Shown: positions 912 to 60,715 of the stretch, in pieces | Position numbering within the stretch: position 1 is the stretch's first letter | Layout: every line of letters begins with the position of its first letter | Source of the DNA: a bacterium | Lineage (GTDB): Bacteria > Patescibacteriota > Minisyncoccia > UBA6257 > UBA9933 | DNA: 64,000 nucleotides | Direction of reading: 5' to 3' | Assembly (NCBI GenBank): GCA_030693235.1 | Contig: JAUYBE010000006.1 | Span: 71,189-135,188 of the forward strand | Position numbers and translations under genes: made by a program | The notes under the pieces: model-generated | What the model was told of the DNA's origin: nothing | The model's input: only the letters and a program-made list of their open reading frames with translations | Databases searched by the model: none

Positions 912-3279
912 TTTTTTAAAACAATTTTTCGGCAAATATGATTTTGAACCGCTAATTAAAAAAATTAATTCTTTAGAACCGGAACTGGAAAAATTAACAG
1001 ACGAAGAATTAAAAAACAAGAGCCTTGATTTGAAAAAAGCGGTTCAATCAAAAAGCCTCGATGATATTTTGCCCGAGGCTTTTGCGTTGGTAAGGGAAGC
1101 CGCCAAAAGGACATTGGGCCAGCGGCCTTTTGATGTTCAATTAATGGGCGGCGTTGTTTTGCATCAAGGAAAAATCGCCGAGATGAAAACCGGTGAAGGA
1201 AAAACTCTGGCAGCTGTTATGCCGGCTTATCTTAACGCTTTAACCGGCAAAGGCGTTCATATTATTACGGTTAACGATTATTTGGCGCGAAGAGACGCGA
1301 TTTGGATGGGGCAAATTTATCACGCTTTGGGATTGTCAATTGGATGTTTGACGCATGAAGCGGCGCTTTTATACGACCCAATGTATACCGAAAAAGATAA
1401 AGAACGCGATATTTTGGGAGGTTTTAAAATAGTTCACGAATTTCTTCGGCCGGTTTCAAGAAAAGAAGCTTATTTAGCCGATATTACTTACGGCACCAAT
1501 CACGAATTCGGTTTTGATTATCTTCGCGATAATTTGGTTTATGATTTAGGACAACAAGCTCAAAGGGGCAATCATTTCGCCATTATTGACGAGGTTGACA
1601 GTATTTTAATCGATGAGGCGCGCACTCCTTTGATTATCGCGGCGCCGGATACCGAATCCAGCGAGTATTATAAAATTTTCGCTAAAATTGTTGACAGACT
1701 TCGCAAAGATGATGATTATTTGGTTGATGAAAAATTAAAAACCGTCAGCATTACCGATGAGGGAATTGATAAAATAGAGAAGACGCTGAACATTAAAAAT
1801 CTTTACGGGCCGGAAAATTTTCGGATGGTTCATTATTTGGAAGAATCGCTTAAAGCTAAAACTTTATTTCATCTGGATAAAAATTATGTAGTTAAAAACG
1901 GCGAGGTGATTATTGTGGATGAATTTACCGGCCGGATGATGTATGGCCGAAGATATAGCGCCGGACTCCATCAGGCGATTGAAGCCAAAGAAAACGTCGC
2001 AATTAATCAGGAATCAAAAACTTTTGCCCAGATTACCATTCAGAATTATTTTCGGTTGTATGAAAAAATCAGCGGTATGACCGGCACGGCTCAGACATCG
2101 GCCGAGGAGTTTCATAAAGTTTACAATTTGGAAGTGATTAGCGTGCCGTCCAATAAACCGACGGTTCGCAATGATCTGTCGGATCTTATTTATAAAAATA
2201 CGGAAGCGAAATATCAAGCCGTGATTGAGGAAGTAAGAAAACGCCATTTAAGCGGCCAGCCGGTTCTCATCGGCACCGCTTCCATTACTCATAACGAAAT
2301 TTTATCGGATTTATTGAATCGAGCCGGCGTTTCGCACGAAGTTTTGAACGCCAAGAATCATGAATGCGAAGGATTGATTATCGCTCAGGCCGGAAAATTA
2401 GGAGCGGTTACCGTGGCGACTAACATGGCTGGCAGGGGAGTCGATATTGTTTTCGGCGGCAATCCTCCCGAGCCGGCAGAAGCGCGAAAAATCAGAGAAT
2501 TGGGCGGGTTGCATATTATCGGCACTGAAAGGCATGAAGCCAGAAGAATTGATAATCAGTTGCGCGGCAGAGCGGGACGGCAAGGAGATCCCGGTTCTTC
2601 GCAATTTTTTCTGTCTTTGGAAGACGATTTATTGCGGATTTTCGGCGGCGAAAGAATAAAAAGTTTAATGGAAGCGTTTAATTTGCCAGAGGATCAGCCG
2701 ATTGAATCGCGATTAGTTTCCAAAGTCGTTAATGAGGCCCAGAAAAAAGTTGAGGGAATGAATTTTGACGGCAGAAAACATTTATTGGAATACGACGATG
2801 TTTTGAACAAGCAACGGACGGCTTTTTATAAAAAAAGGCGGGAATTTTTATCTCCCTACGAGAGATCCCCCGAAGGGGGAGAACAAAAATCAAATCCGCA
2901 GGTTTTGGCGATGTTGGATATTTTATGGATGAACCATTTGGAAAATTTGGAAGCTTTGAGAGAGTCGGTTGGGATGCGGGCTTACGGCCAGCACGACCCT
3001 TTGGTGGAATATCGGCGGGAAAGTTTTTCGATGTTTAGAGAAATGATGGCGAATTTTGACAAATGGCTAAGCGAAAACGCAGAGCGTTTATCGCAACCAA
3101 CAACCAACGACCAACAATCAGCAAAAGAAAATAATTTAGGAAATGTCGTGGGTCGTGGGTCGTTAGTCGTCGGTCAGACCAAAGTCGGTCGCAATGATCC
3201 CTGCCCGTGCGGCAAAAAAAATCCACTTGCCAATAAACCAATGAAATACAAAAAATGTTGTTATCCAAAATTTGAATAA
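904..3279 (+). CDS. secA: Preprotein translocase ATPase SecA. It ends in the C-terminal zinc-binding tail CPCGKKNPLANKPMKYKKCCY and contains in-frame repeat insertions
   Basis: 791 aa. SecA DEAD-motor motifs are present: MKTGEGKTL, DEVDSILIDEARTPLII, TGTA, NMAGRGVDI. The start overlaps the hpf stop. Confidence 0.95.
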   Translation: MFNFLKQFFGKYDFEPLIKKINSLEPELEKLTDEELKNKSLDLKKAVQSKSLDDILPEAFALVREAAKRTLGQRPFDVQLMGGVVLHQGKIAEMKTGEGKTLAAVMPAYLNALTGKGVHIITVNDYLARRDAIWMGQIYHALGLSIGCLTHEAALLYDPMYTEKDKERDILGGFKIVHEFLRPVSRKEAYLADITYGTNHEFGFDYLRDNLVYDLGQQAQRGNHFAIIDEVDSILIDEARTPLIIAAPDTESSEYYKIFAKIVDRLRKDDDYLVDEKLKTVSITDEGIDKIEKTLNIKNLYGPENFRMVHYLEESLKAKTLFHLDKNYVVKNGEVIIVDEFTGRMMYGRRYSAGLHQAIEAKENVAINQESKTFAQITIQNYFRLYEKISGMTGTAQTSAEEFHKVYNLEVISVPSNKPTVRNDLSDLIYKNTEAKYQAVIEEVRKRHLSGQPVLIGTASITHNEILSDLLNRAGVSHEVLNAKNHECEGLIIAQAGKLGAVTVATNMAGRGVDIVFGGNPPEPAEARKIRELGGLHIIGTERHEARRIDNQLRGRAGRQGDPGSSQFFLSLEDDLLRIFGGERIKSLMEAFNLPEDQPIESRLVSKVVNEAQKKVEGMNFDGRKHLLEYDDVLNKQRTAFYKKRREFLSPYERSPEGGEQKSNPQVLAMLDILWMNHLENLEALRESVGMRAYGQHDPLVEYRRESFSMFREMMANFDKWLSENAERLSQPTTNDQQSAKENNLGNVVGRGSLVVGQTKVGRNDPCPCGKKNPLANKPMKYKKCCYPKFE

Positions 3280-3845: not shown

Positions 3846-3984
3846 ATTTTAATTATAGGATTTTTAATCTAAAACCGCAACGAACCTTATCCACAAAAAA
3901 TATAAAAAGTGCCATGGGAAATAGGGATGACCGAAAAGGCTTGACCGTACAACATACTTTCAAACTTAAGAATGTTGGTATATT

Positions 3985-5741: not shown

Positions 5742-5858
5742 ATACTTTCCCGTTCGCCGAAGCAAATAGTATCATCTGATTCAAGCGCTTTTACTTTTCT
5801 GTTCGGAATGGGAAGAAGTAGGGCACGCTTAAGTAAAACACCGGCAAATTCGGGGAAG
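5742..5858 (-). rRNA. rrf: 5S ribosomal RNA
   Basis: The reverse complement contains cccattccgaacagaaaagtaaaagcgc...gatgatactatttgc...gggaaagta, matching the conserved 5S loop B/C and helix IV patterns. It lies just downstream of the 23S 3' end. Ends are approximate. Confidence 0.75.
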
Positions 5859-6022
5859 CGAAATTCACAATTATTATCAGAATCTTCAAATCCCAAAAGG
5901 GGAATGAGATAAATTATTTATGACTTATTAGTACTTCTTGGCTTAATCCGTTGCCGGACTTACACCTAAAGCCTATCAACGTGGTAATCTTCCACGAGTC
6001 TAAGATGTCTAATCTTGGGAGG

Positions 6023-6055
<33 letters not shown>

Positions 6056-6196
6056 CTGCCGAACATAGCTACCCGGCGCTTCACCTGGTGGCAAAGCCGG
6101 TAGACCAGAGGTTCGTTCAGCCTGATCCTCTCGTACAAAGGCCAACTTCCCTCAAACATCAACGCCTCTAGCAGATAGAGACCAACCTGTCTCACG

Positions 6197-6894
6197 CATA
6201 ATTTCAACTATTACTAATTGATTGGACTATACCACCTTCTTTTTTTATTAAGAAGATCGACGTTTTATAAAATCTTTAAAGATTTTATCTCTCCGACATA
6301 AGTCGAAGAAGTCTCTACGGGGTTAATGTACGCTTTTTTCGTTTCTTAGAATAATTTAAATCCCGAAAACTATCTACTAATTTTGCGAGTTTAATAAAAT
6401 CATTCTTATTTTTTATATTTTCTTTCATATTTAGAATTTTTATCATCAGATTAACTTGTTCTTTTTTAAGAATTACAAATGGTTTTACCATTTTCAAAAA
6501 ATCGCGCAACGCGTCGGTTCTTCCAATTATATATTCAAGAATACCGTCTTTGCGTATTCTTAAATAACCTAAACCAATTAAATTACAAATCTTTTGAAAA
6601 TTAACCCGATCTTTCTGAGATTGAAATAAAACAATATATGGCGATACTTGAAAACCATACCGATAAGTTCGATTTGGTTTTAATCGCACATAAATACTTC
6701 CATCTCCGTCTAAAAATCCTGCGATATATGATTTTTGAATTTGATTAAGCATACACAACTTCCCTCGGTATTATCCTAACATTTGACAGGTTAAAAATCA
6801 ATATTAGGATTTCACCGATATGAGTCGATTTATGCATTTTGACATCACTGTCGAAAGCCGCCGTGTTCGATGGTCATAAAGGGTTCTTTCTTTG
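6197..6894 (-). mobile_element. Group I intron in 23S rRNA, inserted in the ...GGGTTyArAmCGU|CGUGAGACAG context (near E. coli position 2593, the I-CreI-type site). It carries a LAGLIDADG ORF
   Basis: Exon sequence gggttcaaaccgt is interrupted before cgtgagacag. The 5' exon ends in U and the intron ends in G (omega-G). The span is about 698 nt with the ORF inside. Confidence 0.75.
6315..6758 (-). CDS. LAGLIDADG homing endonuclease encoded in the 23S intron
   Basis: 147 aa with the N-terminal motif IAGFLDGDGSI (LAGLIDADG). It sits wholly inside rRNA sequence. Confidence 0.85.
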   Translation of the reverse strand: MCMLNQIQKSYIAGFLDGDGSIYVRLKPNRTYRYGFQVSPYIVLFQSQKDRVNFQKICNLIGLGYLRIRKDGILEYIIGRTDALRDFLKMVKPFVILKKEQVNLMIKILNMKENIKNKNDFIKLAKLVDSFRDLNYSKKRKKRTLTP

Positions 6895-7063: not shown

Positions 7064-8860
7064 ATCTCCGGCCTTTCTATAAAGGACCGTCGGGTCACTA
7101 AGTTCTGCTTTCGCACCGGCGCGGCTTGTCAGCCTTGCCGTTAAGCCGGCTTTTGCCTTTACGCGTCCAGCTCGATTTCCATCCGAGCTAAGCCGACCTT
7201 AATAAACTCCTCCGTTACTCTTTAGGAGGATTCCGCCCCAGAAAAACTGCCCGCCAGACACTGTCCCCGAACGTTTTTGCCGTTCAGGTTAGTTTTTAAA
7301 ATTTAAAAGATGGGTGTTTCATTGTCGGCTCCATCCCGACCGAGATCGAAACTTCAAAGCCTCCCCACTACGCTACGCATTTAAATTCTAAAAACAATAT
7401 CAAGCTACAGTAAAGCTCCCGGGGTCTTTTCGTCCCGCTAGAGGTATCCCGCGTCTTCACGGGAATCGCATTTTCACCGAGCTCCTCGTTGAGACAGTTC
7501 CCCAGTCGTTACACCTTTCGTGCGCTTCGGAACTTACCCGAAAAGGAATTGCGCTACCTTAGAACGATTATAGTTATCGCTGACATTGACGAGGGCTTGA
7601 GTCACTCAGCTGCGCATATTGCTACACGCAACCGGCAACCTTGACCTTCTCGCATCGGTCAGGTGTCACCCCCTATACCTCCTCTTACGAGTTTGCAGGG
7701 AGCTGTGTTTTTGTTAAACAGTCGCTAGGGATACTTTCGCTGCGACCCGAAAAATGCCTTGCGGCATCTCGGGTAGGCCTTATTGCTAACTTACGGCCGC
7801 TTTTTTGCCGAGTTCCTTAACGAGGAATCACTCGTTTCCCTGAGGCTACTCGCCTCATCCACCTGTGTCGGTTTACGGTACGGACCCAACATTTCTAATC
7901 TTAGAGGTTTTTCTCGGAGATTTGCTCGACAAACTTTATCCGGTAAAACCAGACATCGCCTCTACTCTGGGATTTGCTATTAAAAGCATCCCGACAGATT
8001 TTCTAGTCGGGAATCCTCGATCAAGGACGTCAAACCATTAAGACGCTTTATCTACTAAACCTCGTCACCCCATCGAAAAATATTGAGGGACTGGAATATT
8101 AACCAGTTGTCCATTAACTCCGGCTTTCGCCATTGCCTTAGGACCGCCTAACCCTCCGTTGATTTACATTGCGGAGGAAACCTTGGATTTGCGGGAGTCC
8201 GAGTTCTCATCGGACTTGCGGTTACTCATGCCAACATTCTCTCTTCCGTACGCTCCAGTTGCCCTCGCGGGTCAACCTTCAGCGCGTACGAAATGCTCTC
8301 CTACCACCCCCGACGTGAAGTCGGGGATTCGTGTTTTCGGTAATTTGCTTAGCCCCGGTAAATTTTCGGCGCAACCCGCCGTCGAATAGTGAGCTGTTAC
8401 GCACTCTTTAAAGGATGGCTGCCTCTAAGCCAACCTCCTATCTGTTTATGGCGGATAACTGCCTTTAACACTTAGCAAATATTTAGGGACCTTAAACGAC
8501 GATCAAGGGCTGTTTCCCTTTCGAACATGGAGCTTAGCCCCCACGTTCTAACTGCCGAGCCGTGCTTTTCCGTATTCGGAGTTTGACTGAGAAGTCGAGA
8601 TTTCTCCCTTTACTTCTTAACCAGTAGCTCTACCCCAGAAAAGTTTTTACTCGACGCCAGTCCTAAAACTGTTTCGGAGAGAACCAGCTATTACCAGGCT
8701 CGATTAGCTTTTCACTTCTTACCTCAGCTCATCCGAAGATTTTGCACAATCAACCGGTTCGGACCTCCATCCCGCTTTCGCGGGACTTCATCCTGGCCAA
8801 GGCAAGCTCGCCTGGCTTCGGGTCTTACACAAACCGTTAACCTCGCGCTCCGCGCGAGAA

Positions 8861-8998
8861 ATTTCTAATTTCTAATTTCTAATTTCTAAATAAATCCCAA
8901 TTTCCCAAATCCCAATAACCAAATATAATTGTGGTCATTTAGTGCTTGGTCATTGGTCATTATTTAGGTCAATTAGAAATTAGGTCAATTAGGAATTC
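8861..8998 (-). repeat. Palindromic repeat-built expansion, possibly an intervening sequence, inside 23S domain I/II. It is made of tctaatt / aattaga and tggtcat / tgaccaa type repeats
   Basis: About 140 nt of tandem and inverted ctaatt, cccaat and ggtcatt repeats replace a short variable helix between the conserved gggaaaccgagt and gtgtaagacccgaa blocks. The same repeat family occurs at 18287-18398 and 52770-52795. Confidence 0.6.
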
Positions 8999-9186
8999 CT
9001 TGTGCGAAGCACAAGGTGGCGCGCTTTTAACACTCGGTTTCCCTTTGCCTCCGCCCCGTAGGACTTAGACAAACGATTTATATAAACTCGTTGGCTCATT
9101 CTTCAATAGGCACACGGTCGTCCTTGCGGACTTCCGTTCCTTGTAGACATATGGTTTCAGATTCTATTTCATCGGCCTTGCCGGCC

Positions 9187-16896: not shown

Positions 16897-17151
16897 ATGA
16901 AGAAAAAAATAACCACAATTGAAGATTTGGCGGTTTTGGTTCAGGGAGAATTTTTAAATGTTGATAAAAATTTTAAAGAATTACGCAATGAAATGGGTAA
17001 TGGATTTAGAAGTTTAAGAAATGAAATTTTAGAGATTAAATCTGATTTGGAAGATCTTAAATTGAGAATGGGCGAAATGGTTTTTAGATTTGAAATTCAA
17101 GATGTTGAAAGAAGATTAAAGAGAGTAGAGGAAAAAATTGGGTTAAAATAA
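16897..17151 (+). CDS. Hypothetical small coiled-coil protein
   Basis: ORF track entry. Charged heptad-like sequence, no recognisable family. Confidence 0.4.
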   Translation: MKKKITTIEDLAVLVQGEFLNVDKNFKELRNEMGNGFRSLRNEILEIKSDLEDLKLRMGEMVFRFEIQDVERRLKRVEEKIGLK

Positions 17152-17155
17152 ACAA

Positions 17156-17272
17156 TGAAAGTGCGAGCATCCGTAAAAAAAATTTGTAAAGATTGTAAAA
17201 CCGTCCGAAGACAAGGACGGATTTATGTGATTTGCAAGAAAAATCCGAAACATAAACAGCGTCAGGGGTAGA
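17156..17272 (+). CDS. rpmJ: Ribosomal protein bL36
   Basis: Translated by hand: [38 protein letters not shown]. This is the canonical L36 zinc-ribbon. It is absent from the ORF track because it is under 60 aa. Confidence 0.9.
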
Positions 17273-17355
17273 TAATCAGGTTTTAGTTTTTAGTTTTTAG
17301 GTTTTAGATAATTTTTTTCTAACACCTAACACCTAACACCTAACACCTAAAAACT

Positions 17356-17739
17356 TTGAGACTAATAGGCATCAACATTCCAGATAATAAAAGAATAGAA
17401 ATCGCTTTAACCTATGTGTACGGCATCGGCCGTTCTTTGGCGAATGACATTTTAAAAACGACAAAAATCGATTTCAACAAGCGGGCGAAAGATTTAAGTC
17501 CCGAAGAAATCAGCCGCCTTAAGCAGGAAATTGAAAAAAGTTATAAAATTGAAGGAGAATTGCGCCAGTCAATAAAACAAAACATCGTTCGTCTTAAAGA
17601 AATTCAATGCTATCGAGGAAGCAGGCATTTAAAAAAATTACCGATAAGAGGTCAGCGGACCAAAACCAATTCCCGGACCGTCAGAGGCAATGTCAGAAAA
17701 ACGGTCGGCAGCGGAAAGAGAAAAGCGGACTTGAAGTAA
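17356..17739 (+). CDS. rpsM: Ribosomal protein uS13 (TTG start)
   Basis: Sequence RLIGINIPDNKRIEIALTYVYGIGRSLANDIL... matches S13. Confidence 0.9.
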   Translation: MRLIGINIPDNKRIEIALTYVYGIGRSLANDILKTTKIDFNKRAKDLSPEEISRLKQEIEKSYKIEGELRQSIKQNIVRLKEIQCYRGSRHLKKLPIRGQRTKTNSRTVRGNVRKTVGSGKRKADLK

Positions 17740-17826
17740 GTTCATAAAGTTCATAAAGTTCATAAAGTTTGTAAAGTTTAACGAATTCAACTTTATAACT
17801 TCCAACTTTATAAACTTTTAACTAAA

Positions 17827-18282
17827 ATGGGTAAGAAAAAAGTTATTAAAAAAACAGAAGAAGAGGTTTTAAAAGAGAAAGATAAATTGGAAACGGCGAT
17901 GACAAAAGCCGCCGGGAAAGGCACGGTCATAAAAAAAATAGACAGCGGTCGGATTTATATTAACGCCAGTTATAATAATACCGTTTTAACCGTCGCCGAC
18001 AGAAAAGGCGATGTTATTGCCTGGGCATCGGCCGGTTCGTTGGGTTTTTCCGGACCCAAAAAATCAACCCCTTTCGCGGCTTCAAAAGTTGTTGCCGCTG
18101 TCGCCGAGAAATTAAAAAAAATCGGAATTGTTAATTTTGAAGTTATCGTTAAGGGCGTCGGCTCGGGAAGAGATTCGTCTATCAGATCTTTGGCTAATCA
18201 AGGATTTAATATTTTATCAATTAAAGATGTTACCCCTATTCCTCATAACGGTCCGCGGCCGCCGAAAGTGAGAAGAGTGTAA
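17827..18282 (+). CDS. rpsK: Ribosomal protein uS11
   Basis: Sequence GRIYINASYNNTVLTVADRKGDVIAWASAGSLGFSGPKKSTPFAA matches S11. Confidence 0.9.
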   Translation: MGKKKVIKKTEEEVLKEKDKLETAMTKAAGKGTVIKKIDSGRIYINASYNNTVLTVADRKGDVIAWASAGSLGFSGPKKSTPFAASKVVAAVAEKLKKIGIVNFEVIVKGVGSGRDSSIRSLANQGFNILSIKDVTPIPHNGPRPPKVRRV

Positions 18283-18399
18283 ATATAAAAATTATTCTAA
18301 TTAGTCTAATTTCTAATTATTCTAAAACCTGGGCATTAGGGTTTAGGGTTTATTTAGGTAAATTAGAATAATTAGGTTAATTAGAGTAATTTATAAAGC

Positions 18400-19089
18400 G
18401 TGATTCAAGATCTAAATAAATTAGAGCAGAAACTCGGAACACAATTTAAAAATAAGGATTTTCTCAAGGAGGCCATTACTCATCGTTCTTATCTTAACGA
18501 AAATCCTTCTTGGGGCGTGCCCCATAATGAGCGCTTAGAATTTTTAGGAGACGCGGTTTTGGAATTGGCGGTAACGGAAAATCTTTTTAACCAGTTTCCG
18601 GATTTTTCCGAAGGACAATTGACGAGTTTGCGGGCGGCTTTGGTGAATTATCAAACAATGGCTAATGCGGCTCGCAATATAGATCTAGGAAATTTTATTT
18701 TATTGTCGCGAGGCGAAGCCAAGGATATCGGCCGGGCCCGGGAAGTGATTTTGGCCAACGCGATGGAGGCGTTAATTGGCGCGGTTTATTTGGACGCCGG
18801 ATACGCAAAGACAAAAGAATTAGTGGAAAAATTCGTTATTAATCTTTATTTGGAGCAGATTATCAAGAACAATCTTTATAAAGATCCAAAAAGTCATCTT
18901 CAGGAAATTGCTCAGGAAAAATTGAAACTGACTCCGACTTATCAATTGCTTGAAGAATGGGGTCCGGATCATAAGAAAATATTTAAGATGGGAGTTTTTT
19001 TTGGAGATAAATTAATTGCCCAAGGCGAGGGCTATTCCAAACAAGAGGCGGAAATCGAAGCGGCGAGGAACGCTCTGAAGAGTTTTTAG
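18400..19089 (+). CDS. rnc: Ribonuclease III (GTG start)
   Basis: RNase III signature ERLEFLGDAVLEL and a C-terminal dsRBD (QE...P.Y......GP.H...F). Confidence 0.9.
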   Translation: MIQDLNKLEQKLGTQFKNKDFLKEAITHRSYLNENPSWGVPHNERLEFLGDAVLELAVTENLFNQFPDFSEGQLTSLRAALVNYQTMANAARNIDLGNFILLSRGEAKDIGRAREVILANAMEALIGAVYLDAGYAKTKELVEKFVINLYLEQIIKNNLYKDPKSHLQEIAQEKLKLTPTYQLLEEWGPDHKKIFKMGVFFGDKLIAQGEGYSKQEAEIEAARNALKSF

Positions 19090-19159
19090 GTTTTAGTTTT
19101 TAGGTTTTAGATGAATTTTTTTCTAACACCCAACACCCAACACCTGACACCTAAATATT

Positions 19160-21412
19160 TTGTTTTTAAAATCATTAGAACTCAACGGTTTTAAATCTTT
19201 TGCCCAAAAGACGATTTTGGATTTTCCGGCCGGCATTACGGCGATCGTTGGGCCGAACGGCAGCGGCAAGTCGAATATCATTGACGCGATTCGCTGGCTT
19301 TTTGGCGAAAGAGAAGCGAAGAATTTAAGAAGCGCCAAAGCCGAAGATTTGATTTTTGGCGGCACGCCTTCCAAACCGAGAGTGGCGATGGCTTCCGCCG
19401 GCCTTCATTTTAATAATAATTCCGGTTTTTTTCCGGTTGATTTTAAAGAAGTTTCCGTTGTTCGCCGCGTTGGCCGGGACGGTTTTTCGCAATATTTTCT
19501 TAATAAAGCCGAAGTAAAACTCAAAGAAATAATCGATTTTTTCAGTCGTTCACGGCTTGGGACGAAAGGATTGACGGTTATCAATCAAGGCGAGGCAGAT
19601 TTATTCGTCAGGGCTTCAACCGAAGAGCGCCGAATAATGATTGAAGAAATCTTGGGTCTTAGAGAATATCAGATTAAAAAAACCGAAGCCGAACGCAAAT
19701 TAAAAAACACTTTTATTAATTTGGAAAAAGTCAGGGCGATGGTTGAAGAAGTAATTCCCCGGCTTCGAACGCTTAAGCGCCAAACCAATAAATGGGAGAA
19801 AAGAGCGGCAGTTCAAAAAGAATTGAACGATTTTGAAAATGAATATTTTTCCAGAAAATTAAATGAAATCAAAAACAGCCGAAAAGAATTTGAGCAGTTG
19901 CTTATTTCTTTGGAAAATCAAATTAAGGAGAGAGAGGGGGAATTGAAAATTTTGGAATCGGAGCTGAAAAAAGCGGAATTTCAGCCGCAAGAGCGTCAGG
20001 AAATCAATCCTTCGGCGTTGCTCAGGGTTGAGAAGCAAAAATTATTAACGGAACGTTTTTATATTCAAAAAGAATTGGGGCGAATTGAAGCGAAATTGGA
20101 ATTTTTGGCAATGCCTAAAATGTCAGACAGACCGGTTTTTGAAAATGCCTCCCTGCGGGAGGTCTCCCGTAGGGAGAAAGATTTACTTGATCTTATTAAT
20201 GAAACCAAAAAAATTCTCGGCGATTGTTTAATATGTTCGGATTTTGAAGATTTAAAAAAGACAATCAATGAATTGGCCGCGAAAATAGATAAGTTTTTGA
20301 GTTCCAAAAAAGAACCGGTTCTTTTGTCTCATAAGCCAATCGAGTCGAGTTTAAGGGATTTGGAAAACAGCAAAAATAATCTGGAAGCGAAATTAAATAT
20401 TATTGAAGCGGAATTTAAAAAATTTGAAGAGCAAGAAACGAAAATTACCGTTGGTTTGGAAGAGTTTAACAAGAAATTTCAAAAAGCTTTTGAATTGGTG
20501 GAATCGAAAAGAAAAGAATTGAGAGAATTGGACGGGAATAAAAACAGGATTCTTTTTGAAGGGGAAAAATCGAATTTGAAACTTCAAGATTTGGAAAATC
20601 AATTAAGTCAGATTGGGAAAACGACCAACGATCTACGACCAACGACTAACGATCAACGACTTACTGAGGTTGAGCTTGCTGAAATGGAGCGGAAGATGTT
20701 TAAATTAAGAACGGAATTGGCAGCTATCGGCGAGATTGATGAATCTCTGATAAAAGAAGCCCAAGAAGTTGAGGCGCATTATAATTTTTTGACAAATCAA
20801 TCGCAGGATTTGGAAAAAGCCATTATTGATTTAAAAAATCTTATTAAAGAATTGAGCGAAAAAATTCATTTTGAATTTAATGCTTCGCTTAAGTCCATTA
20901 ATGACGAGTTTAATAAATTTTTTAAATTGATGTTTGGCGGCGGAAACGCGAAGCTCAAAATAAAAAAACAAAAATTAAAAATAAAAAATATTGAAGATAT
21001 TGAAGACGGCGCTATCACGCGTGATAGTATTGAAAATTCTGGCGATAATGAAAATAACGATGAAATTCCGGTGGGCGTTGATATTGATCTTAATTTGCCG
21101 AAAAAAAGAATTACCAGTTTGGAAATGCTTTCCGGCGGGGAAAAAAGTTTGGTTTCAATCGCCGCGCTTTTCGCTTTGATTTCCATCAGCCCGCCGCCAT
21201 TTTTGGTTTTAGACGAGATTGACGCGGCTTTGGATGAAAATAATTCCGGAAGGTTTGCCGATTTAATTAAGGAATTTTCCAAGAAGACGCAATTTATCGT
21301 GGTTACTCATAACCGAGCGGTAATGGAAGTCGCCAACGCGTTATATGGAGTAACAGTAGGAGAGGATGGAACATCAAAAATACTTTCATTAAAACTTGAC
21401 ACTAAAAACTAA
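19160..21412 (+). CDS. smc: SMC-family chromosome segregation ATPase (short form, TTG start), with in-frame repeat insertions
   Basis: N-terminal Walker A GPNGSGKSNIIDAIRWLFGE. C-terminal signature LSGGEKSLVSIA and Walker B LVLDEIDAALD. Long coiled coils. Confidence 0.85.
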   Translation: MFLKSLELNGFKSFAQKTILDFPAGITAIVGPNGSGKSNIIDAIRWLFGEREAKNLRSAKAEDLIFGGTPSKPRVAMASAGLHFNNNSGFFPVDFKEVSVVRRVGRDGFSQYFLNKAEVKLKEIIDFFSRSRLGTKGLTVINQGEADLFVRASTEERRIMIEEILGLREYQIKKTEAERKLKNTFINLEKVRAMVEEVIPRLRTLKRQTNKWEKRAAVQKELNDFENEYFSRKLNEIKNSRKEFEQLLISLENQIKEREGELKILESELKKAEFQPQERQEINPSALLRVEKQKLLTERFYIQKELGRIEAKLEFLAMPKMSDRPVFENASLREVSRREKDLLDLINETKKILGDCLICSDFEDLKKTINELAAKIDKFLSSKKEPVLLSHKPIESSLRDLENSKNNLEAKLNIIEAEFKKFEEQETKITVGLEEFNKKFQKAFELVESKRKELRELDGNKNRILFEGEKSNLKLQDLENQLSQIGKTTNDLRPTTNDQRLTEVELAEMERKMFKLRTELAAIGEIDESLIKEAQEVEAHYNFLTNQSQDLEKAIIDLKNLIKELSEKIHFEFNASLKSINDEFNKFFKLMFGGGNAKLKIKKQKLKIKNIEDIEDGAITRDSIENSGDNENNDEIPVGVDIDLNLPKKRITSLEMLSGGEKSLVSIAALFALISISPPPFLVLDEIDAALDENNSGRFADLIKEFSKKTQFIVVTHNRAVMEVANALYGVTVGEDGTSKILSLKLDTKN

Positions 21413-22045: not shown

Positions 22046-22092
22046 TATAGAAGCGGACAAGTCCGAAATTAAATCCATAAAGCCTCGACGAA

Positions 22093-22116
22093 AGTCGGGG
22101 TTTTTATGTTATAATA
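22093..22116 (+). terminator. Intrinsic terminator after the KH gene
   Basis: Hairpin cctcgac-gaaa-gtcgggg followed by a TTTTT tract. Confidence 0.55.
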
Positions 22117-22126
22117 AAAGATAGAT

Positions 22127-22861
22127 ATGAAGTTTGATATCATCACAATTTTCCCTGATATTTTTTCCGCCAAGGGCGGATCTTATTTAAACGAGTCAAT
22201 TTTAAAGCGCGCGCGGGCCAAAAAATTAATTCAAATTAAAATCCATAATTTACGGGATTTTGCCGTTGGCAGCAGACTTATGCAGACTGAACGCGGACTT
22301 ACGCAGAAAAATGGATATCGTAAAGTAGATGATAAACCTTACGGTGGGGGACCGGGAATGGTGCTCAAACTTGAACCGCTCGTAAAAGCGGTTTCAAGTT
22401 TGAAGTCAAAAGTCAAAAGTCAAAGGTCAAAGGTTATAATATTCACGCCGGCGGGAAAACAGTTTGACAATAAAATTGCAGGGCAGTTGGCAAAAAATTA
22501 CAATAATTTAATTTTAATTTGCGGCCGCTATGAAGGCATTGACGCTCGCTTAATGCCGGTTCTTAAAACTTTAAAACTTTCAACTTTAGAACTTTCTGTT
22601 GGTCCCTATGTTTTAACCGGAGGTGAATTGGCGTCAATGGTTTTAATAGACGCGGTTTCGCGGCAAATTCCCGGCGTTCTTGGCAAAGAAGAATCGCTTG
22701 AGGAAAAACGTTTCGGTATTGGCGCGCCGGCTTATACCCGGCCGGAAACGTTTGTTTATGGGAATAAGAAATATAAAGTCCCGAAAGTTTTACTTTCCGG
22801 CAATCATAAAAAAATAGAAGATTGGAGAAGGAAGAAATCCCTTGAGATTCTTACAAGTTAG
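22127..22861 (+). CDS. trmD: tRNA (guanine37-N1)-methyltransferase TrmD, with in-frame repeat insertions
   Basis: Sequence FDIITIFPDIF...ICGRYEGIDARL...LTGGELASMVLIDAVSR matches TrmD. Extra segments RLMQTERGLTQKNG and KSKVKSQRSKV coincide with DNA repeats. Confidence 0.85.
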   Translation: MKFDIITIFPDIFSAKGGSYLNESILKRARAKKLIQIKIHNLRDFAVGSRLMQTERGLTQKNGYRKVDDKPYGGGPGMVLKLEPLVKAVSSLKSKVKSQRSKVIIFTPAGKQFDNKIAGQLAKNYNNLILICGRYEGIDARLMPVLKTLKLSTLELSVGPYVLTGGELASMVLIDAVSRQIPGVLGKEESLEEKRFGIGAPAYTRPETFVYGNKKYKVPKVLLSGNHKKIEDWRRKKSLEILTS

Positions 22862-24137: not shown

Positions 24138-24289
24138 ACCAAAAAATCATTCATTGTATTTATAACGATTGTATTTACGGCGTTCATAATTAAGAAGACG
24201 ACGAGTTATTCCGCTATGACATGTCATAGCGCTATGCTATAGCATAGCGCCGCAGTTCTTGCTGTCATACGAGATAATTTGAATTTATA

Positions 24290-24378
24290 TGCCGTGGACA
24301 GTCTCATCGATGACGTCCGCATTTACAACCGGGCTTTATCTCCAGCCGAAATCTCTGCTATATATAACGCGACTAAAT
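24290..24378 (+). pseudogene. Orphan duplicate of the pilin LamG C-terminal coding end (...VDSLIDDVRIYNRALSPAEISAIYNATK*)
   Basis: About 75% identical at DNA level to 24055-24137. It has no start or upstream ORF and is preceded by palindromes. Confidence 0.55.
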
Positions 24379-24928
24379 AAAACCCCAAACCCTAAACTCT
24401 TACGACTATTGTCGGTGTTAAAGCGCTCTAACCGATTAGAGCGGTCGAGCTAACTCGACCGCTCTCCGCTATTGCGCTTAATACATCTATAATGCGCCTA
24501 AAAAGTTTAGTTGATTAATTGTAAATCAGCGGATTTTAACAGCTCGCCTGTTTTTATGAGCTGAGCCGTTAAAAAACCAATTTGAGATTGCTTCGCTTCG
24601 TTCGCAATGACAAAACGACAGTCGTCATTGTGAACCCCGCTAAGCGGGGCGCGGCAATCTTTATAGATTGCTTCGCCTTCGGCTCGCAATGACAGAATTG
24701 GATTGCCGCCATCTATAACGCGACAAAGTAGTAAAGCAAATAAAATAGTAAAGCGAATAGTAAATGAAAATCATTACAACATAGCGGTAGAGATTGCCGC
24801 GCTCCCTTCGGTCGCTCGCAATGACATCTCGGCTCGCAATGACAAAAGCATCAATCAGTATATGCGATAAGATTGCTTGGCATTAAGCTATTGACGATGG
24901 CAATAAAATTTGATATTTTTATTAAATT

Positions 24929-27599: not shown

Positions 27600-28283
27600 A
27601 TGGATATTGTCAACCCCGAATACGAAAATTTAATAGATTCTCTAATAAGAGATGGTTATCTTAAGACGCCGGAAATTATTGAGGCGCTTAAAGCGATTGA
27701 CCGGGCGGATTTTGTGCCCGAAGAATATAAATCCGAGGCCTATGTCAACGCGCCTTTACCCATTGATTTTAATCAAACAATTTCTCAACCGTTGACCGTG
27801 GCGTTTATGCTGGAATTATTAGAGCCAAAGCCAGGCGAAAAAATTTTAGATATCGGCGCCGGCTCGGGCTGGGTCAGCGCTATTTTAGCGCAAATTGTCG
27901 GTAATCCGCCGGCTGGCGGAGGTAAGGTTGTGGCGATTGAACGGATTCCTGAATTAAAAGAAATGGCGGAGAAGAATATTTCCAAATATAATTTTTTTGA
28001 AAAGGGGATTGTTAAAATTATTTTGGGCGACGGCTTCAAAGGCTATAAAAAAGAAGCGCCTTATGATAAAATAATAGCGGCGGCGGCGGCAACAGGAGAT
28101 GTGCCGATTTATTGGAAAAGGCAGTTAAAAATTGGCGGTCGCATCGTAGCGCCGGTTGAAAACAGTATTATCATTATTGACAAAACCGGCAGAAACAAAT
28201 ATAATCAAAAGGAATATTTCGGATTTAGTTTCGTGCCGTTGATAACCAACGACCAACGACTAACAACTCAGACGCATAAGTAA
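27600..28283 (+). CDS. pcm: Protein-L-isoaspartate O-methyltransferase, with a C-terminal in-frame TTNDQR-type repeat
   Basis: Sequence TISQPLTVAFMLELL...ILDIGAGSGWVSAILA matches PCMT motifs I and pre-I. Confidence 0.8.
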   Translation: MDIVNPEYENLIDSLIRDGYLKTPEIIEALKAIDRADFVPEEYKSEAYVNAPLPIDFNQTISQPLTVAFMLELLEPKPGEKILDIGAGSGWVSAILAQIVGNPPAGGGKVVAIERIPELKEMAEKNISKYNFFEKGIVKIILGDGFKGYKKEAPYDKIIAAAAATGDVPIYWKRQLKIGGRIVAPVENSIIIIDKTGRNKYNQKEYFGFSFVPLITNDQRLTTQTHK

Positions 28284-31626: not shown

Positions 31627-31770
31627 CAAGAAAAATACATAGATTATTATAAATAATAATCCGCGGACAACAGGCATTTAAGACCTGTCGAGGATGGCGA
31701 TTTTTGTCTGCGGCATTCTGCCGTATTTTTGTTACTAAAACCTAACACCTAAAACCTATAACCTAACTTT

Positions 31771-32751: not shown

Positions 32752-32825
32752 ATCAACGAATAGCGAATTTTTTGTACGAATATACGAATTCGTAAATTCG
32801 TAATTGATTCGTTATTCGGTGATTT

Positions 32826-33653: not shown

Positions 33654-34613
33654 ATGCATAAGCCTGTTCTTTTAAAAGAAGTTATTGAAATTTTAAATCC
33701 ACAGTCCGGAGAATTTTTTATTGATGGAACATTGGGCAGTGGCGGGCACGCGGTTGAAATTATTAAAAAAATTTCGCCGAACGGAATATTTTTGGGAGTT
33801 GATTGGGATAAGGATGTAATAGAGAATTTCAAATCAAACCTAAAACCTAAAAGCTATAACCTAAAAGCTATTAGGTTGGTTCACGGCAATTACGCGGATT
33901 TGCCGGAAATTTTGTCTGCCTACGGCAGATCTCCCGAAGGGAGAAAAAAATACAAATTGCCGAAAGCCGACGGATTGCTCATTGATTTGGGATTTTCTTC
34001 CGAGCAGTTGGAGAAATCGGGCAGGGGATTCAGTTTTTTAAGAGATGAACCGCTGGATATGAGATATGACACGAAAGTTGAAAGTTTAACCGCGGCGGAA
34101 GCGGTAAACAGTTTCAACGAAAAAGATTTGGCGGATATTTTTTGGAAATACGGCGAAGAAAGATTTTCCCGAAGAATCGCCAAAAAGATTGTTGAAGAAA
34201 GGAAGAAAAAAAGAATTTTAATAACATTTGATTTAGTGGAAGTAATCAAAAGAGCTGTACCGAAAAGTTATGAAAAAGGCAGAATTCACCCCGCCACTCG
34301 CGTTTTTCAAGCCCTGCGGATTTATGTCAATGACGAATTGGGCAATTTGGAAAAATTATTAAAAAATCTGGAGAAAATTATAAAACCTAAAGGTCGAGTC
34401 GCTATAATTTCATTTCATTCATTGGAAGATCGCTTGGTTAAAAACTATTTTCGGGAGATGGCGAAACCTGCCCGCATTGCTACGCAAAGCGTTGCAGGCG
34501 GGAAAGGAATGGCGGAAATTTTAACCAAGAAACCGATAACGGCGACGCTGGAGGAAATTAGAAGCAATCCAAGGTCGCGATCGGCGAAAATGAGAGCAAT
34601 AAAACTTCTATGA
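33654..34613 (+). CDS. rsmH: 16S rRNA (cytosine1402-N4)-methyltransferase RsmH (MraW), with three in-frame repeat insertions
   Basis: Sequence HKPVLLKEVIE...FIDGTLGSGGHA...DLGFSSEQL...ISFHSLEDRLVK matches RsmH. Confidence 0.9.
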   Translation: MHKPVLLKEVIEILNPQSGEFFIDGTLGSGGHAVEIIKKISPNGIFLGVDWDKDVIENFKSNLKPKSYNLKAIRLVHGNYADLPEILSAYGRSPEGRKKYKLPKADGLLIDLGFSSEQLEKSGRGFSFLRDEPLDMRYDTKVESLTAAEAVNSFNEKDLADIFWKYGEERFSRRIAKKIVEERKKKRILITFDLVEVIKRAVPKSYEKGRIHPATRVFQALRIYVNDELGNLEKLLKNLEKIIKPKGRVAIISFHSLEDRLVKNYFREMAKPARIATQSVAGGKGMAEILTKKPITATLEEIRSNPRSRSAKMRAIKLL

Positions 34614-36547: not shown

Positions 36548-36647
36548 TCATTATTTTACGGTCATTGCGAGGAGCGAAGCGACGAAGCAATCTCTATGAA
36601 TCAATAAGATTGCTTCACTGCGTTCGCAATGACAAGGCCACAGCATT

Positions 36648-43208: not shown

Positions 43209-43223
43209 TCGCGTTAGGAATTC

Positions 43224-43262
43224 GCGGATGTAGTACAGTGGCAGTATATGACATTTTTCACG
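43224..43262 (+). pseudogene. 5' fragment of a tRNA (acceptor gcggatg plus D-arm gtac-agtggca-gtat) with no anticodon or T-arm
   Basis: Resembles the 5' third of the adjacent tRNA-Gly and then diverges. Confidence 0.5.
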
Positions 43263-43279
43263 CAATCCCATTCAATTTT

Positions 43280-43350
43280 GCGAGAGTAGTATAGTGGCAA
43301 TACGCTAGCTTCCCAAGCTAGGAACGCGGGTTCGATTCCCGTCTCTCGCT
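43280..43350 (+). tRNA. tRNA-Gly (CCC)
   Basis: Manual fold: acceptor gcgagag/ctctcgc perfect. Anticodon stem ctagc/gctag, loop ttCCCaa. T-arm gcggg-ttcgatt-cccgt. Confidence 0.8.
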
Positions 43351-58252: not shown

Positions 58253-60715
58253 ATGTTCAACCATCGAAAAATTGAAAAAAAATGGCAAAAAATTTGGGAG
58301 AAGAATAAGTTTTATCAAGCAGAAGATTTTTCAAAAAAACCTAAATATTATTGTCTTATAGAATTTCCTTATCCTTCGGGCGATGGGCTGCATGTTGGGC
58401 ATACGAGGAGCCTTACTGCTATGGATGTAATCGCCAGAAAGCGCCGAATGGAAGGATATAATGTCCTTTATCCGATTGGTTGGGACGCGTTCGGTTTGCC
58501 GACCGAGAATTATGCTATTAAGACGGGCATTCATCCGAAAGTCGTAACAAAAAAAAATACAGATATTTTCAGACGCCAACTTAAATCGCTTGGTTTTTCT
58601 TTTGATTGGAGCAGGGAAATAAACACCACTGACCCGGAGTATTATAAATGGACCCAGTGGATATTTTTACAATTTTATAAAAAAGGATTGGCTTATAAAA
58701 AGAAAATGCCGATTAACTGGTGTCTTTCCTGTAAAATCGGTTTGGCGAATGAGGAGGTTGTTGATGGTAAATGCGAACGGTGCGGCGGAGAAACCGAAAA
58801 AAGAGAAAAAGAACAATGGATGTTGGCGATAACAAAATATGCCGACAGATTATTAAAGGATTTGGATAAAGTTGATTATCTTGAAAAAATAAAAATTCAG
58901 CAGAGAAATTGGATAGGACAATCTCAGGGCGCTGAGATTGAATTCAAAATTAAGAATTCAGAATTTAGAATTAACGTATTCACAACGCGACTGGATACGA
59001 TTTTCGGTTGTACTTATTTAGTGGTTGCGCCGGAGCATCTGTTAATTAAGAATTTAGAATCTAGAATTAAGAATTTAGGAGAAGTAAAAAAATATATTGA
59101 ACAATCAAAAAAGAAATCCGATTTACAAAGGACAGATTTGGCGAAAGATAAAACAGGGTTTGAATTGGAGGGAATTAAGGCGGTTAATCCTTTCAATAAT
59201 CAAGAAGTGACGGTTTTTGTCACGGATTATGTTTTGGGCAGCTATGGTACGGGAGCGATTATGGCGGTTCCGGCGCATGATGAACGGGATTGGGATTTTG
59301 CCAAGAAATATAAACTTCCAATCAGAAAAGTAATTTTACCAAAACCATTACTATCAATTGCGCGCAATGCCAACGATGTCGCTATCGGGGCTCGAAGTTT
59401 TTTGAGGGTAGAGGCAGAATGTTTTATAGGAGATGGAGAATTAGTTGATTCCGGCCAGTTTACCGGATTAACTTCGGAAAAAGCCCGCGTAGAAATGGTG
59501 AAATGGCTTGAGAAAAATAAATTCGGTAAAAAAACAATTCAGTACAAACTTCGCGATTGGATTTTTTCCAGACAGCATTATTGGGGCGAGCCGATTCCCA
59601 TTATTCATTGCGATAAGTGCGGTGAAGTTTCGGTTCCGGAAAATGACTTACCGGTTAAATTGCCGGATGTGAAAAAATATGAGCCGACAGACACGGGCGA
59701 ATCGCCTTTGGTGAATATTAAAAAATGGGTGAACGTAAAATGTCCGAAATGCAAAGGCCAAGCGAAAAGAGAAACCGATACAATGCCAAATTGGGCTGGT
59801 TCGTCTTGGTATTTTTTGCGCTACACTGACTCAAAAAATAAAAAGTTTTTGGCAGATGAGAGAAAATTAAAATATTGGACGCCTGTTGACTGGTACAACG
59901 GCGGAATGGAACATACCACGCTTCATCTTTTATATTCCCGTTTTTGGAATAAGTTTCTTTATGATATTGGAGTTATTCCGACAAGCGAACCGTATAAAAA
60001 AAGAACATCCCACGGAATGATTTTGGGCGAGGATGGCGAAAAAATGTCAAAATCAAAAGGTAATGTTGTTAATCCCGATGATGTAGTTGTTAATTTTGGC
60101 GCCGACGCTTTTCGACTGTATCAGATGTTTATAGGGCCGTTTGACCAGGCGATTCCTTGGGATTCACGCGGCATAGAAGGGACAAAGCGGTTTCTTGGAA
60201 AAGTTTGGAATCTGCAGAATAGAATTGTGAATCATGAATCAGGAATTATGGATAAAAAAATTGAATCGCTTTTGCATAAGACCATTAAAAAAGTCGGCGA
60301 TGACATTGAAAAAATGAGATTTAATACGGCTGTTTCCACATTGATGATTTTAGCGAATGAATTAGAAAAAGAAAAAGAGATTTCCCTAATTCATTATTCC
60401 AAATTCCTAATTTTATTAAGCCCGTTCGCGCCTTTTGTCGCGGAAGAGCTTTGGGAGAAACTTAGCAATAAAAAATCCATTCATTTAGAATCTTGGCCGA
60501 AATACAATCCAAAACTGATAAAAGAAGAAAAATTTGAACTGGTGATTCAGATTAACGGTAAAATTCGGGATAAAGTTTTGGTTGAAATAGGCATTGTTCA
60601 AAAAGAAGCCGAAGAGATAGTTTTAAAGTTGGAAAAAATAAAGAAATTGATCGCCGGCCGGAAAATAAAAAAAATTATTTACGTTCAGGACAGACTAATT
60701 AATATCGTCGTCTAA
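58253..60715 (+). CDS. leuS: Leucyl-tRNA synthetase
   Basis: HIGH sequence FPYPSGDGLHVGHTRS. KMSKS sequence KMSKSKGNVV. Zinc knuckles CxxC are present. Confidence 0.95.
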   Translation: MFNHRKIEKKWQKIWEKNKFYQAEDFSKKPKYYCLIEFPYPSGDGLHVGHTRSLTAMDVIARKRRMEGYNVLYPIGWDAFGLPTENYAIKTGIHPKVVTKKNTDIFRRQLKSLGFSFDWSREINTTDPEYYKWTQWIFLQFYKKGLAYKKKMPINWCLSCKIGLANEEVVDGKCERCGGETEKREKEQWMLAITKYADRLLKDLDKVDYLEKIKIQQRNWIGQSQGAEIEFKIKNSEFRINVFTTRLDTIFGCTYLVVAPEHLLIKNLESRIKNLGEVKKYIEQSKKKSDLQRTDLAKDKTGFELEGIKAVNPFNNQEVTVFVTDYVLGSYGTGAIMAVPAHDERDWDFAKKYKLPIRKVILPKPLLSIARNANDVAIGARSFLRVEAECFIGDGELVDSGQFTGLTSEKARVEMVKWLEKNKFGKKTIQYKLRDWIFSRQHYWGEPIPIIHCDKCGEVSVPENDLPVKLPDVKKYEPTDTGESPLVNIKKWVNVKCPKCKGQAKRETDTMPNWAGSSWYFLRYTDSKNKKFLADERKLKYWTPVDWYNGGMEHTTLHLLYSRFWNKFLYDIGVIPTSEPYKKRTSHGMILGEDGEKMSKSKGNVVNPDDVVVNFGADAFRLYQMFIGPFDQAIPWDSRGIEGTKRFLGKVWNLQNRIVNHESGIMDKKIESLLHKTIKKVGDDIEKMRFNTAVSTLMILANELEKEKEISLIHYSKFLILLSPFAPFVAEELWEKLSNKKSIHLESWPKYNPKLIKEEKFELVIQINGKIRDKVLVEIGIVQKEAEEIVLKLEKIKKLIAGRKIKKIIYVQDRLINIVV

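Follow-up and report, generated by a model that had tools for sequence, protein, structure and literature searches.

Hairpin elements at the gene junctions

Several spacers between ribosomal-protein genes and their neighbours in a 64-kb stretch of the contig JAUYBE010000006.1 (64,000 nucleotides (nt), referred to here as the window) are filled by palindromic elements in which each arm is itself a tandem array of a short unit. The window has a high gene density and a G+C content of ∼39%, and nearly all of its genes lie on the plus strand. Homologues of ribosomal protein S11 place the host within Patescibacteria/Parcubacteria, near sequences named Wolfebacteria, and the best S11 matches are assemblies from Hainich groundwater. 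Gene names were confirmed with Pfam for L36, S13, RNase III, L10, L7/L12, MraZ and RsmH, and by homologue and profile searches for S11, SMC, S16, KhpA and TrmD. A promoter-like site at 16623 lies upstream of the hairpin-bearing ribosomal-protein operon. The junction elements, two related single arms and some of the adjoining genes are listed below; z-scores compare folding energy with that of shuffled sequences, and L numbers denote homologous loci in other genomes.

17155-17271, plus strand: rpmJ (Pfam L36)
17276..17352, plus strand: family-1 hairpin, copy A; (G/T)TTTTAG x4, A/T loop, CTAACAC x4; fills the rpmJ-rpsM spacer
17356-17739, plus strand: rpsM (Pfam S13); TTG start 7 nt past family-1 copy A
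17738..17822, plus strand: family-2 hairpin, copy A; AAGTTCATA x4.6 / AACTTTAT; fills the rpsM-rpsK spacer
18283..18399, plus strand: CTAATT-unit hairpin, ∼45 bp; fills the rpsK-rnc spacer (RNase III gene leader)
18400-19089, plus strand: rnc (RNase III)
19081..19155, plus strand: family-1 hairpin, copy B; rnc-smc spacer; 3′ arm diverged to CCAACAC/CTGACAC
31731..31770, plus strand: family-1-like single arm, CTAAAAC/CTAACAC x4.6; directly upstream of rplJ; 85% identity
32266..32395, plus strand: AAAATGT / ATTTTAC heptamer hairpin; fills the rplJ-rplL spacer
32752..32825, plus strand: CGAAT-unit hairpin; spacer from rplL to tRNA-Val; z −8.1; unit family also in L009 and L132
33562..33650, plus strand: family-2 hairpin, copy B; AAGTTCATA / AACTTTAT; mraZ-rsmH spacer
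33836..33878, plus strand: family-1-like single arm, AAACCTA x5; in frame within rsmH (...KPKSYNLKAI...)

An earlier note, made from the letters of this DNA alone, had listed hairpin-forming families at these boundaries, and all of its coordinates carry the sequences that it gave. The families that it named stand, and others that it had not listed were also found. Two-armed elements lie at 17276, 17738, 18283, 19081, 32266, 33562, 3094, 53757 and 8840. Their arms are runs of a short unit and of its approximate complement, mostly of 7 nt with a range of 6-11, and the elements measure 60-180 nt. The hairpins are imperfect, with about one mismatch or small internal loop per unit. At the junctions, the elements fill the spacer from stop to start codon inside polycistronic units, with 3′ arms that stop 6-12 nt short of the start codons; the stop codon of rnc lies inside the first unit of family-1 copy B. 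Many of these spacers have no obvious Shine-Dalgarno sequence, as judged by eye. TTG start codons are used by rpsM (17356) and smc (∼19157-19160), both behind family-1 elements, and likewise by rpsM of L131 (3522); relatives without the family-1 element have ATG at the same codon.

Copies within the genome resemble one another along their whole length. Family-1 copies A and B have 92% identity across the loop and the 39-nt 3′ arm, their loops are near-identical (ATAATTTTTTT and ATGAATTTTTTT), and a three-way alignment with the family-1 copy of L131 gives a mean column identity of 85%. The two family-2 copies are 88% identical, and have in common their loops as well as their units. Because the copies of both families share loops, and not units alone, whole elements are copied between sites within a genome. 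The elements are copies of lineage-specific families of small, non-coding palindromic repeats, each arm being a tandem array, and form part of a genome-wide class of heptamer-type arrays.

Abundance and placement of the arrays

Short-unit arrays were counted with Tandem Repeats Finder, using units of 6-11 nt and at least 2.8 copies. The window holds 39 of them (∼6 per 10 kb), compared with a mean of 0.4 in 20 dinucleotide shuffles, and a search for CTAACACCTAACACC with up to three mismatches gave 17 matches where 0.41 are expected. Period 7 is the dominant class, accounting for 18/39 arrays in the window and for 39 of the 63 arrays in relatives from the Candidate Phyla Radiation (CPR). At least 10 unrelated unit sequences occur within this one 64-kb window. 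Counting of this kind replaced a sliding 140-nt scan of minimum free energy, which was non-discriminating since A/T-rich hairpins have modest energies; an inverted-repeat search misses arms with G-U pairs and recovered only some of the elements.

Intergenic DNA makes up ∼10% of the window yet contains 36% of the arrays (14/39) and 7/11 of the two-armed hairpins. A further 22 of the 39 arrays lie in coding sequences, all of them in frame, and three lie in 23S rRNA. The elements are therefore not confined to gene boundaries. The earlier note had placed them exactly at operon gene junctions, and this is borne out as far as intergenic enrichment and spacer filling go; specificity for junctions is contradicted by the copies in coding sequences and in 23S rRNA.

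Arrays inside proteins and 23S rRNA

In-frame arrays occur in the genes for SecA, SMC, TrmD (three), RsmH, Pgk (at least four) and LeuS (two), at the end of a protein-methyltransferase-like gene, and in open reading frames (ORFs) taken to encode MurF, LepA and a penicillin-binding protein. The principal sites are as follows.

3094..3175, plus strand: AACGACC / GTCGTGG hairpin; in frame near the SecA C-terminus (...TTNDQQ...GRGSLVVG...)
8840..9010, minus strand: nested tandem arrays of a 178-nt insertion in 23S rRNA; AATTTCT, ATCCCAAT / TTGGTCA, TTAGGTCAA; apical loop of a 23S hairpin
20620..20660, plus strand: AACGAYC x5.7 array; in frame in smc (TTNDLRPTTNDQRLT)
22272..22307, plus strand: ACGCGGACTK-type array; trmD, 42-nt in-frame indel
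22403..22431, plus strand: AAGTCAA x4 array; trmD; relatives have AAGCYAW arrays at the same site
22563..22595, plus strand: family-2-like 3′-arm array (AACTTTA); in frame in trmD; 86-93% identity
37350..37390, plus strand: AGTCMGCGTK x4 array; in frame in a 455-aa ORF (...SQRESALSPRESAW...) read as murF
53348..53377, plus strand: AAAAGTC x4.3 array; pgk, 7-aa insertion (KCQKSKV)
53757..53838, plus strand: ACGCGGA(N3-5) x4 / GTCYGCGT x4 hairpin; in frame in pgk, ∼20-aa insertion
58940..59078, plus strand: two GAATTYA-type heptamer arrays; leuS, flanking the conserved FTTRLDT...APEH segment

Unit families recur across coding and non-coding DNA. The AACGACC family is common to SecA, SMC and the gene end at 28245-28264, and the AATTTCT unit occurs both in the 23S insert and in pgk (52760). 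The AGTCMGCGTK family is found in the 455-aa ORF, which sequence and position, rather than a Pfam check, lead us to read as murF; its other sites are a 605-aa ORF taken as lepA (40089-40125), 39301-39337 and pgk. The ACGCGGA/TCCGCGT unit recurs in Pgk, the MurF- and LepA-read ORFs, TrmD and the penicillin-binding protein gene. Selection for repeats at the protein level was rejected, in that a period of 7 cannot be divided by 3 and non-coding DNA carries the units as well.

The sites within proteins differ between relatives. The 42-nt indel in trmD is shared by the window and L009 and missing from L001 and L002. Two trmD sites carry an array in every relative with units that differ, and L009 has an AAAATTG array at the site matching 22563..22595. 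The Pgk arrays are loop insertions of 7, ∼19 and ∼20 residues relative to the solved PGK structure 1php. The LeuS arrays presumably replace ordinary sequence of similar length rather than adding to it, judging against E. coli LeuS. The insert in 23S rRNA lies at position ∼687-690 of the Rfam large-subunit model, where it replaces two model positions, and its predicted fold, a helix of ∼80 bp, has an energy of −76.8 kcal/mol (z −11.5).

Other dispersed repeats were seen in the window. A second, G+C-richer palindromic class (GTCATTGCGAG...GATTGCTTCG, with 'tcgcaatgac' arms) has several copies in the 791 nt of non-coding DNA at 24138-24928, one in the spacer at 36548-36647, and one in frame in pgk at ∼52900-52990 (peptide ...TEIASPSARND...). 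The peptide ARIATQSVAGG occurs in both RsmH (33654-34613) and the LepA-like ORF (39538-41355), and the PRESALSPRESA/PRESALSPRD peptide in the MurF-like and LepA-like ORFs; both are further in-frame repeats dispersed among housekeeping proteins. Close to the SecA hairpin, an ORF for an HNH endonuclease (3261-3845, minus strand) converges on the 3′ end of secA and overlaps it.

The same junctions in relatives

The infA-rpmJ-rpsM-rpsK-rnc-smc region was compared with L001-L009, in which S11 is 96% identical to that of the window, and with the more distant L130-L134 and L136-L148; a search for rpmJ-rpsM junctions using the exact L36 protein led to one contig only. The flanking coding sequences align closely across these relatives and the spacers do not. 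In L001, L002, L004 and L005, the gap between rpmJ and rpsM is 4 nt and that between rpsM and rpsK is 3 nt, with no element in either, and in L002, L004 and L005 rnc and smc overlap, again with no element; 3 nt is the rpsM-rpsK distance throughout L001-L005. Because these spacers are of 3-4 nt or the genes overlap, three of the four hairpins of this part of the window are absent in its closest relatives.

Where the spacers of relatives are filled, tandem-unit hairpins are found again, with sequences unrelated to those of the window. One family per genome is reused at two or three neighbouring junctions, with constant orientation. Examples are CCTCAAT (L130), CCTACYAAT...AGTAGGA at three junctions (L132/L136), TACAAAT/ATTTGTA at three junctions (L134), TACGAAA (L138/L147), GCAAAGCGCAAATC (L148) and TCTCTAATCAAT (L009). 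Apart from rpsK-rnc, the junctions range from gene overlap to 157 nt, with mixed strand preference. The distribution is mosaic: L131 carries the family-1 element at rpmJ-rpsM and has its rpsK-rnc element in common with L001, and junction alleles appear to have been exchanged or lost independently. Gain, loss or replacement at the same junction thus takes place among close relatives, and the elements look like a fast-turning-over repeat class and not a conserved regulatory signal.

A different palindrome, CCCAGCCGTAC/GTTTT...AAAAGTACGGCTGGGTGCTCAAA, marks a ∼1-kb insertion between rnc and smc in L001 (∼2900-3960) and is also present in the rpsK-rpsD spacer of L134 (4454-4740).

An artefact of assembly or sequencing at low-complexity DNA might be suspected, as the sources are metagenome assemblies and L002 and L009 have runs of N near these regions. 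We give this almost no weight. The elements are shorter than a read, frames are intact through every intragenic array, the same element is found in independent assemblies from different samples (L132 = L136; L001 = L004 = L005), and gene coordinates are identical across L138-L143.

Folding and possible roles in the transcript

The earlier note had suggested that hairpin energies be predicted; z is significant on at least one strand for every element, and lies between −3.9 and −5.6 on at least one strand for every junction element tested. Family-1 copy A folds at −18.6 kcal/mol (z −3.9) as sense and −23.7 kcal/mol (z −5.2) as antisense RNA, and copy B at −13.6 (z −1.7, not significant) and −21.2 (z −3.9), respectively. 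For family 2, the antisense and sense values are −23.5 and −18.5 kcal/mol in copy A and −26.3 and −19.3 in copy B, so that all four copies of the two families are more stable as antisense RNA. The SecA hairpin has the same preference (antisense −32.4 kcal/mol, z −5.0; sense −20.8, z −1.2). The pgk hairpin at 53757..53838 folds better in the sense orientation (−52.7 kcal/mol, z −6.7), as does the CTAATT-unit hairpin at rpsK-rnc (sense −33.4 kcal/mol, z −5.3; antisense −21.5). Strand preference thus differs among elements, and selection on the sense transcript has left no signature common to them.

Several known classes of signal were considered and rejected. The junction hairpins have no U-tract and none was listed by a terminator scan, which removes an intrinsic terminator; the clearest terminator-like site in the region is at 22079-22104, a G+C-rich stem with a T-run whose stem-loop is present in relatives too. 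A known leader or attenuator was sought in Rfam, for which the window gives scores at or above the gathering level with rRNA, tRNA, 5S and RNase P only. A CRISPR/TIGR-type array was discarded, as there are no spacers and the 7-11-nt units are contiguous.

These observations bear on the proposal that the hairpins are functional cis-acting RNAs, each selected as an RNase III site, a barrier to 3′ exonucleases, an attenuator or a coupling device, and together setting the stoichiometry of the operon. Such a role would fit the filling of spacers from stop to start inside operons behind the promoter-like site, the hairpins on both sides of rnc itself, the common orientation of all copies of a family, the 13 of 13 loci that keep a hairpin at rpsK-rnc despite replacement of its sequence, with sense at least as stable as antisense in most, and the precedent of Correia elements, which are bound or cleaved by RNase III (PMC2649163). 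However, the closest relatives have no element at the other three junctions, which makes those hairpins dispensable; antisense is the better-folding strand in families 1 and 2, and the rnc-smc copy is not significant as sense; the same arrays are found in coding DNA and rRNA; the L001 and L131 copies show no compensatory changes; and a U-tract is lacking. As a general explanation we consider this role unlikely, at odds of about one in five, and at most junctions we regard any influence on decay, on cleavage by RNase III or on translational coupling as incidental. The role in transcript stability, processing or attenuation proposed in the earlier note is thus not supported as a general one, with arrays in at least eight conserved genes and in 23S rRNA, three junctions empty in relatives, no U-tract and no match to a cis-regulatory family in Rfam.

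The leader of rnc

The rpsK-rnc spacer behaves differently from the other junctions. It carries a hairpin of 64-142 nt in all 13 loci compared; the z-scores lie between −3.2 and −9.9, and the units fall into nine families unrelated to one another. By family, the sense strand is the more stable in seven and the antisense slightly so in one, with no difference between strands in the remaining one. Few loci were sampled and their lineages are not independent; even so, an autoregulatory RNase III leader maintained through its structure alone would be expected to have this appearance. The E. coli rnc leader is the precedent for an autoregulatory leader acted on by RNase III, and rpsK-rnc is the sole junction at which structure appears to be required, plausibly for autoregulation of RNase III. 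This leader provides a concrete, testable case in which structure is conserved through complete turnover of sequence.

Probable origin and spread of the elements

We consider the elements to be a class of repeats, resembling repetitive extragenic palindromic (REP) sequences and short tandemly repeated repetitive (STRR) sequences, that is driven by slippage and copying and tolerated at permissive sites, and we give this reading a probability of roughly 0.6. They occupy permissive places only, namely the spacers of translationally coupled genes, variable protein loops and the tip of a 23S helix. Arrays may arise and be homogenized by replication slippage and by strand-switch (quasi-palindrome) template switching, and the later spread of whole elements would be through recombination or ectopic templated copying, with no cut-and-paste transposase involved. 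Persistence could be favoured by folding, in that an insert that folds on itself would keep its flanks adjacent, with the stop codon beside the next start in mRNA and the strands of a helix together in rRNA. Where the stop codon stays beside the next start, translational coupling can survive.

Mobilization by a transposase, in which the elements would be non-autonomous (of the type formed by REP sequences and REP-associated tyrosine transposases (RAYTs), or MITEs, which are miniature inverted-repeat transposable elements) and would enter specific short targets between genes, accounts for some of the same facts. Multi-copy families share loops and arms within a genome, orthologous sites are polymorphic for presence and absence, and the families are lineage-specific. 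Against this, filled and empty sites at rpmJ-rpsM, rpsM-rpsK and rnc-smc show no target-site duplication, the aligned ends of families 1 and 2 have no conserved terminal motif, including a GTAG/CGTC head tetranucleotide, and no transposase, Y1_Tnp or RAYT was found among 40 ORFs scanned within the window, the only 64 kb of the genome covered. Length and unit number are also highly variable, and single-arm arrays, as well as arrays that replace sequence in situ, occur within genes. Transposition is accordingly judged improbable.

Arrays could also be sites recognized by a regulator of the S1, Csp, CsrA or KH type that binds RNA or DNA sequence-specifically, as proposed for the TAACTGA repeats ahead of start codons in Beggiatoaceae (PMC4679880). 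The 3′ arms that end 6-12 nt before start codons and the many spacers with no obvious Shine-Dalgarno sequence by eye would suit such a protein. However, the window holds at least 10 unrelated units and each relative holds others, so one protein cannot read all of them, and arrays are found inside genes and rRNA as well. We regard this explanation as quite improbable.

Several points weigh against a slippage- and copy-driven class that is merely tolerated. Slippage, template switching and the copying route are steps that we infer. Family 1 occupies rpmJ-rpsM in L131 as it does in the window; the 3′ arms are identical and both rpsM genes start with TTG, although the S11 of L131 is just 82% identical to that of the window, and some copies must therefore be long-lived. 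All copies of a family have a single orientation relative to transcription, as expected of functional RNA, with the limit that orientation is here confounded with the direction of replication. Intergenic enrichment is far greater for two-armed hairpins than for single arrays, and no polymorphism in unit number within a population was seen, L001, L004 and L005 being identical at rpsK-rnc. Finally, the pattern at rpsK-rnc looks like selection for structure, beyond tolerance.

Comparison with known repeat systems

Heptanucleotide units are the commonest long simple repeats of bacteria and are attributed to polymerase slippage in the account of Mrazek (2007) given in PMC4679880. In Xanthomonas, 70-75 convergent inverted pairs of GGGAATC arrays occur per genome (Rehm et al. 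2015, PMC4692102). The arrays of the window share with these heptamer long simple sequence repeats (LSSRs) and STRRs their head-to-tail units, the dominance of period 7, an excess over chance, intergenic enrichment and the proposed origin by slippage, and with the Xanthomonas type the inverted array pairs able to form stem-loops. The type of repeat is often kept between relatives while its length varies, in both cases. Unlike the known systems, the window has many unrelated families per genome rather than one, at very high density; conserved genes hold over half of its arrays, in frame, and 23S rRNA holds one element; whole hairpins are copied between junctions; and the units are A/T-rich, with no G-quadruplexes.

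In marine Beggiatoaceae, Cyanobacteria and Bacteroidetes, TAACTGA arrays are found a short way upstream of start codons, among them some in ribosomal-protein operons (MacGregor 2015, PMC4679880). Heptamers a few nt before starts, some copies inside ORFs and a sporadic phylogenetic distribution are common to both systems, but the TAACTGA sets use a single unit and are nearly all direct (169 direct, one inverted), whereas the present elements are typically two-armed hairpins, with units that differ by site.

The elements also resemble REP sequences with their bacterial interspersed mosaic elements (BIMEs), and Correia elements (CREE/NEMIS), in being short, dispersed families of palindromes that are co-transcribed in operons, can form RNA hairpins and are polymorphic for presence between strains. 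A REP/BIME palindrome is an imperfect one of 20-40 nt and strictly extragenic, whereas the present elements measure 60-180 nt and 22 of the 39 arrays are in coding sequences; they have neither the head tetranucleotide nor a terminal inverted repeat with target duplication, and their arms are internally tandem-repetitive. The description of the elements as REP-like in the earlier note can thus be kept in the broad sense of dispersed, family-forming palindromes, and has to be given up for the anatomy of REP/BIME, with its head and its extragenic restriction.

Rickettsia palindromic elements (RPEs) are in-frame palindromic inserts in conserved genes and non-coding DNA of a reduced genome; they measure 100-150 bp and form few conserved families. 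In-frame insertion with the reading frame kept is seen here as well (the 42-nt indel in TrmD; 7, ∼19 and ∼20 aa in Pgk). The present elements differ in being short tandem arrays of many families, some of which replace coding sequence instead of being inserted into it, and in host phylum and length. RPEs are named in PMC1779305 and PMC10969869.

Short insertions without ORFs in CPR rRNA have been suggested to be intervening sequences (IVSs) excised by RNase III (PMC11270868). The 23S insert shares with such insertions a length below 200 nt, the lack of an ORF, a position at the tip of a stem-loop and an extended helix; a tandem-array make-up, or kinship with other arrays of the genome, is not mentioned for them in the passages of PMC11270868 that were searched. 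Searches of the literature for elements of the present kind in CPR bacteria found nothing specific. Heptamer simple repeats and REP-like palindromes are known as a class, and this CPR genome is unusual in having so many unit families, in the copies found in frame and in rRNA, and in how rapidly the elements turn over.

Arrays beyond the clade and wider significance

When 185,579 species genomes were scanned for exact runs of at least three YAACACC-type units, at least 120 loci were recovered (L010-L129). The matches listed include Acidobacteriota, Armatimonadota, Bacteroidota, Cyanobacteria, Planctomycetota, Chloroflexota, Desulfonema, one Paceibacterota and others. Many of the listed loci are (GGTGTTR)n-loop-(YAACACC)n hairpins, a few of them followed by a T-run. 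Among the 119 evaluable arrays in the matches listed, a G-rich partner arm was found upstream in 27 and downstream in 3, compared with 5 in a random control; these counts come from a unit-regex test, which was used in place of a duplex-energy partner test that gave 13/39 positives in the control. Different heptamer arrays, such as GAATTAA, AACCTGA and GGAATTG, often lie side by side at the listed (YAACACC)n loci.

A bolder interpretation is that a replication-linked 'hairpin-writing' activity operates in CPR bacteria and replaces palindromes faster than species form, that the cell has come to depend on its products at the rnc leader, and that a general, undescribed mechanism for making hairpins and terminators is involved. 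Palindromes of heptamer arrays would be made de novo and then copied to neighbouring sites; the nine unrelated families that keep a sense-strand hairpin at rnc would represent an autoregulatory target held by structure alone; and more than 10 phyla among the matches listed have the two-armed architecture in which the G-rich arm is 5′. We hold this to be speculative and rather unlikely.

If the preferred reading of a slippage- and copy-driven class is correct, one repeat-generating process lies behind much of the additional sequence of these ultra-small genomes, including odd spacers, short peptide inserts in housekeeping proteins (TNDQRLT, PRESALSPRESA, KSKVKSQ) and short rRNA insertions without ORFs. 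Peptide motifs of the TNDQRLT, PRESALSPRESA and KSKVKSQ types should then not be annotated as domains, and alignment-based phylogeny of CPR marker genes would be affected. It would also bear on how the expression of operons tolerates or exploits long hairpins between coupled genes.

Other features of the window

The minus strand carries 23S and 5S rRNA, and the window also contains 15 tRNAs and RNase P RNA. The gap between 23S and 5S is 942 nt (5846-6787, minus strand), an unusually long spacer that holds a 147-aa ORF (6315-6758). The gene order rpsK-rnc-smc (17827-21412) differs from the canonical rpsK-rpsD-rpoA-rplQ, which is kept in the more distant L134. Between infA and rpmJ lies an 84-aa ORF (16897-17151) with no Pfam match; counterparts are present in L001 and L003 (88 aa) and L130 (148 aa), and absent in L002, L004, L005 and L009. 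A 985-aa ORF just upstream of rplJ (28669-31626) likewise has zero Pfam matches. A defence-gene cluster at 42204-51879 comprises RhuM/Fic, RadC, HsdM and HsdS of a type I restriction-modification system, a protein with a Shedu SduA_C domain and a 1040-aa ORF.

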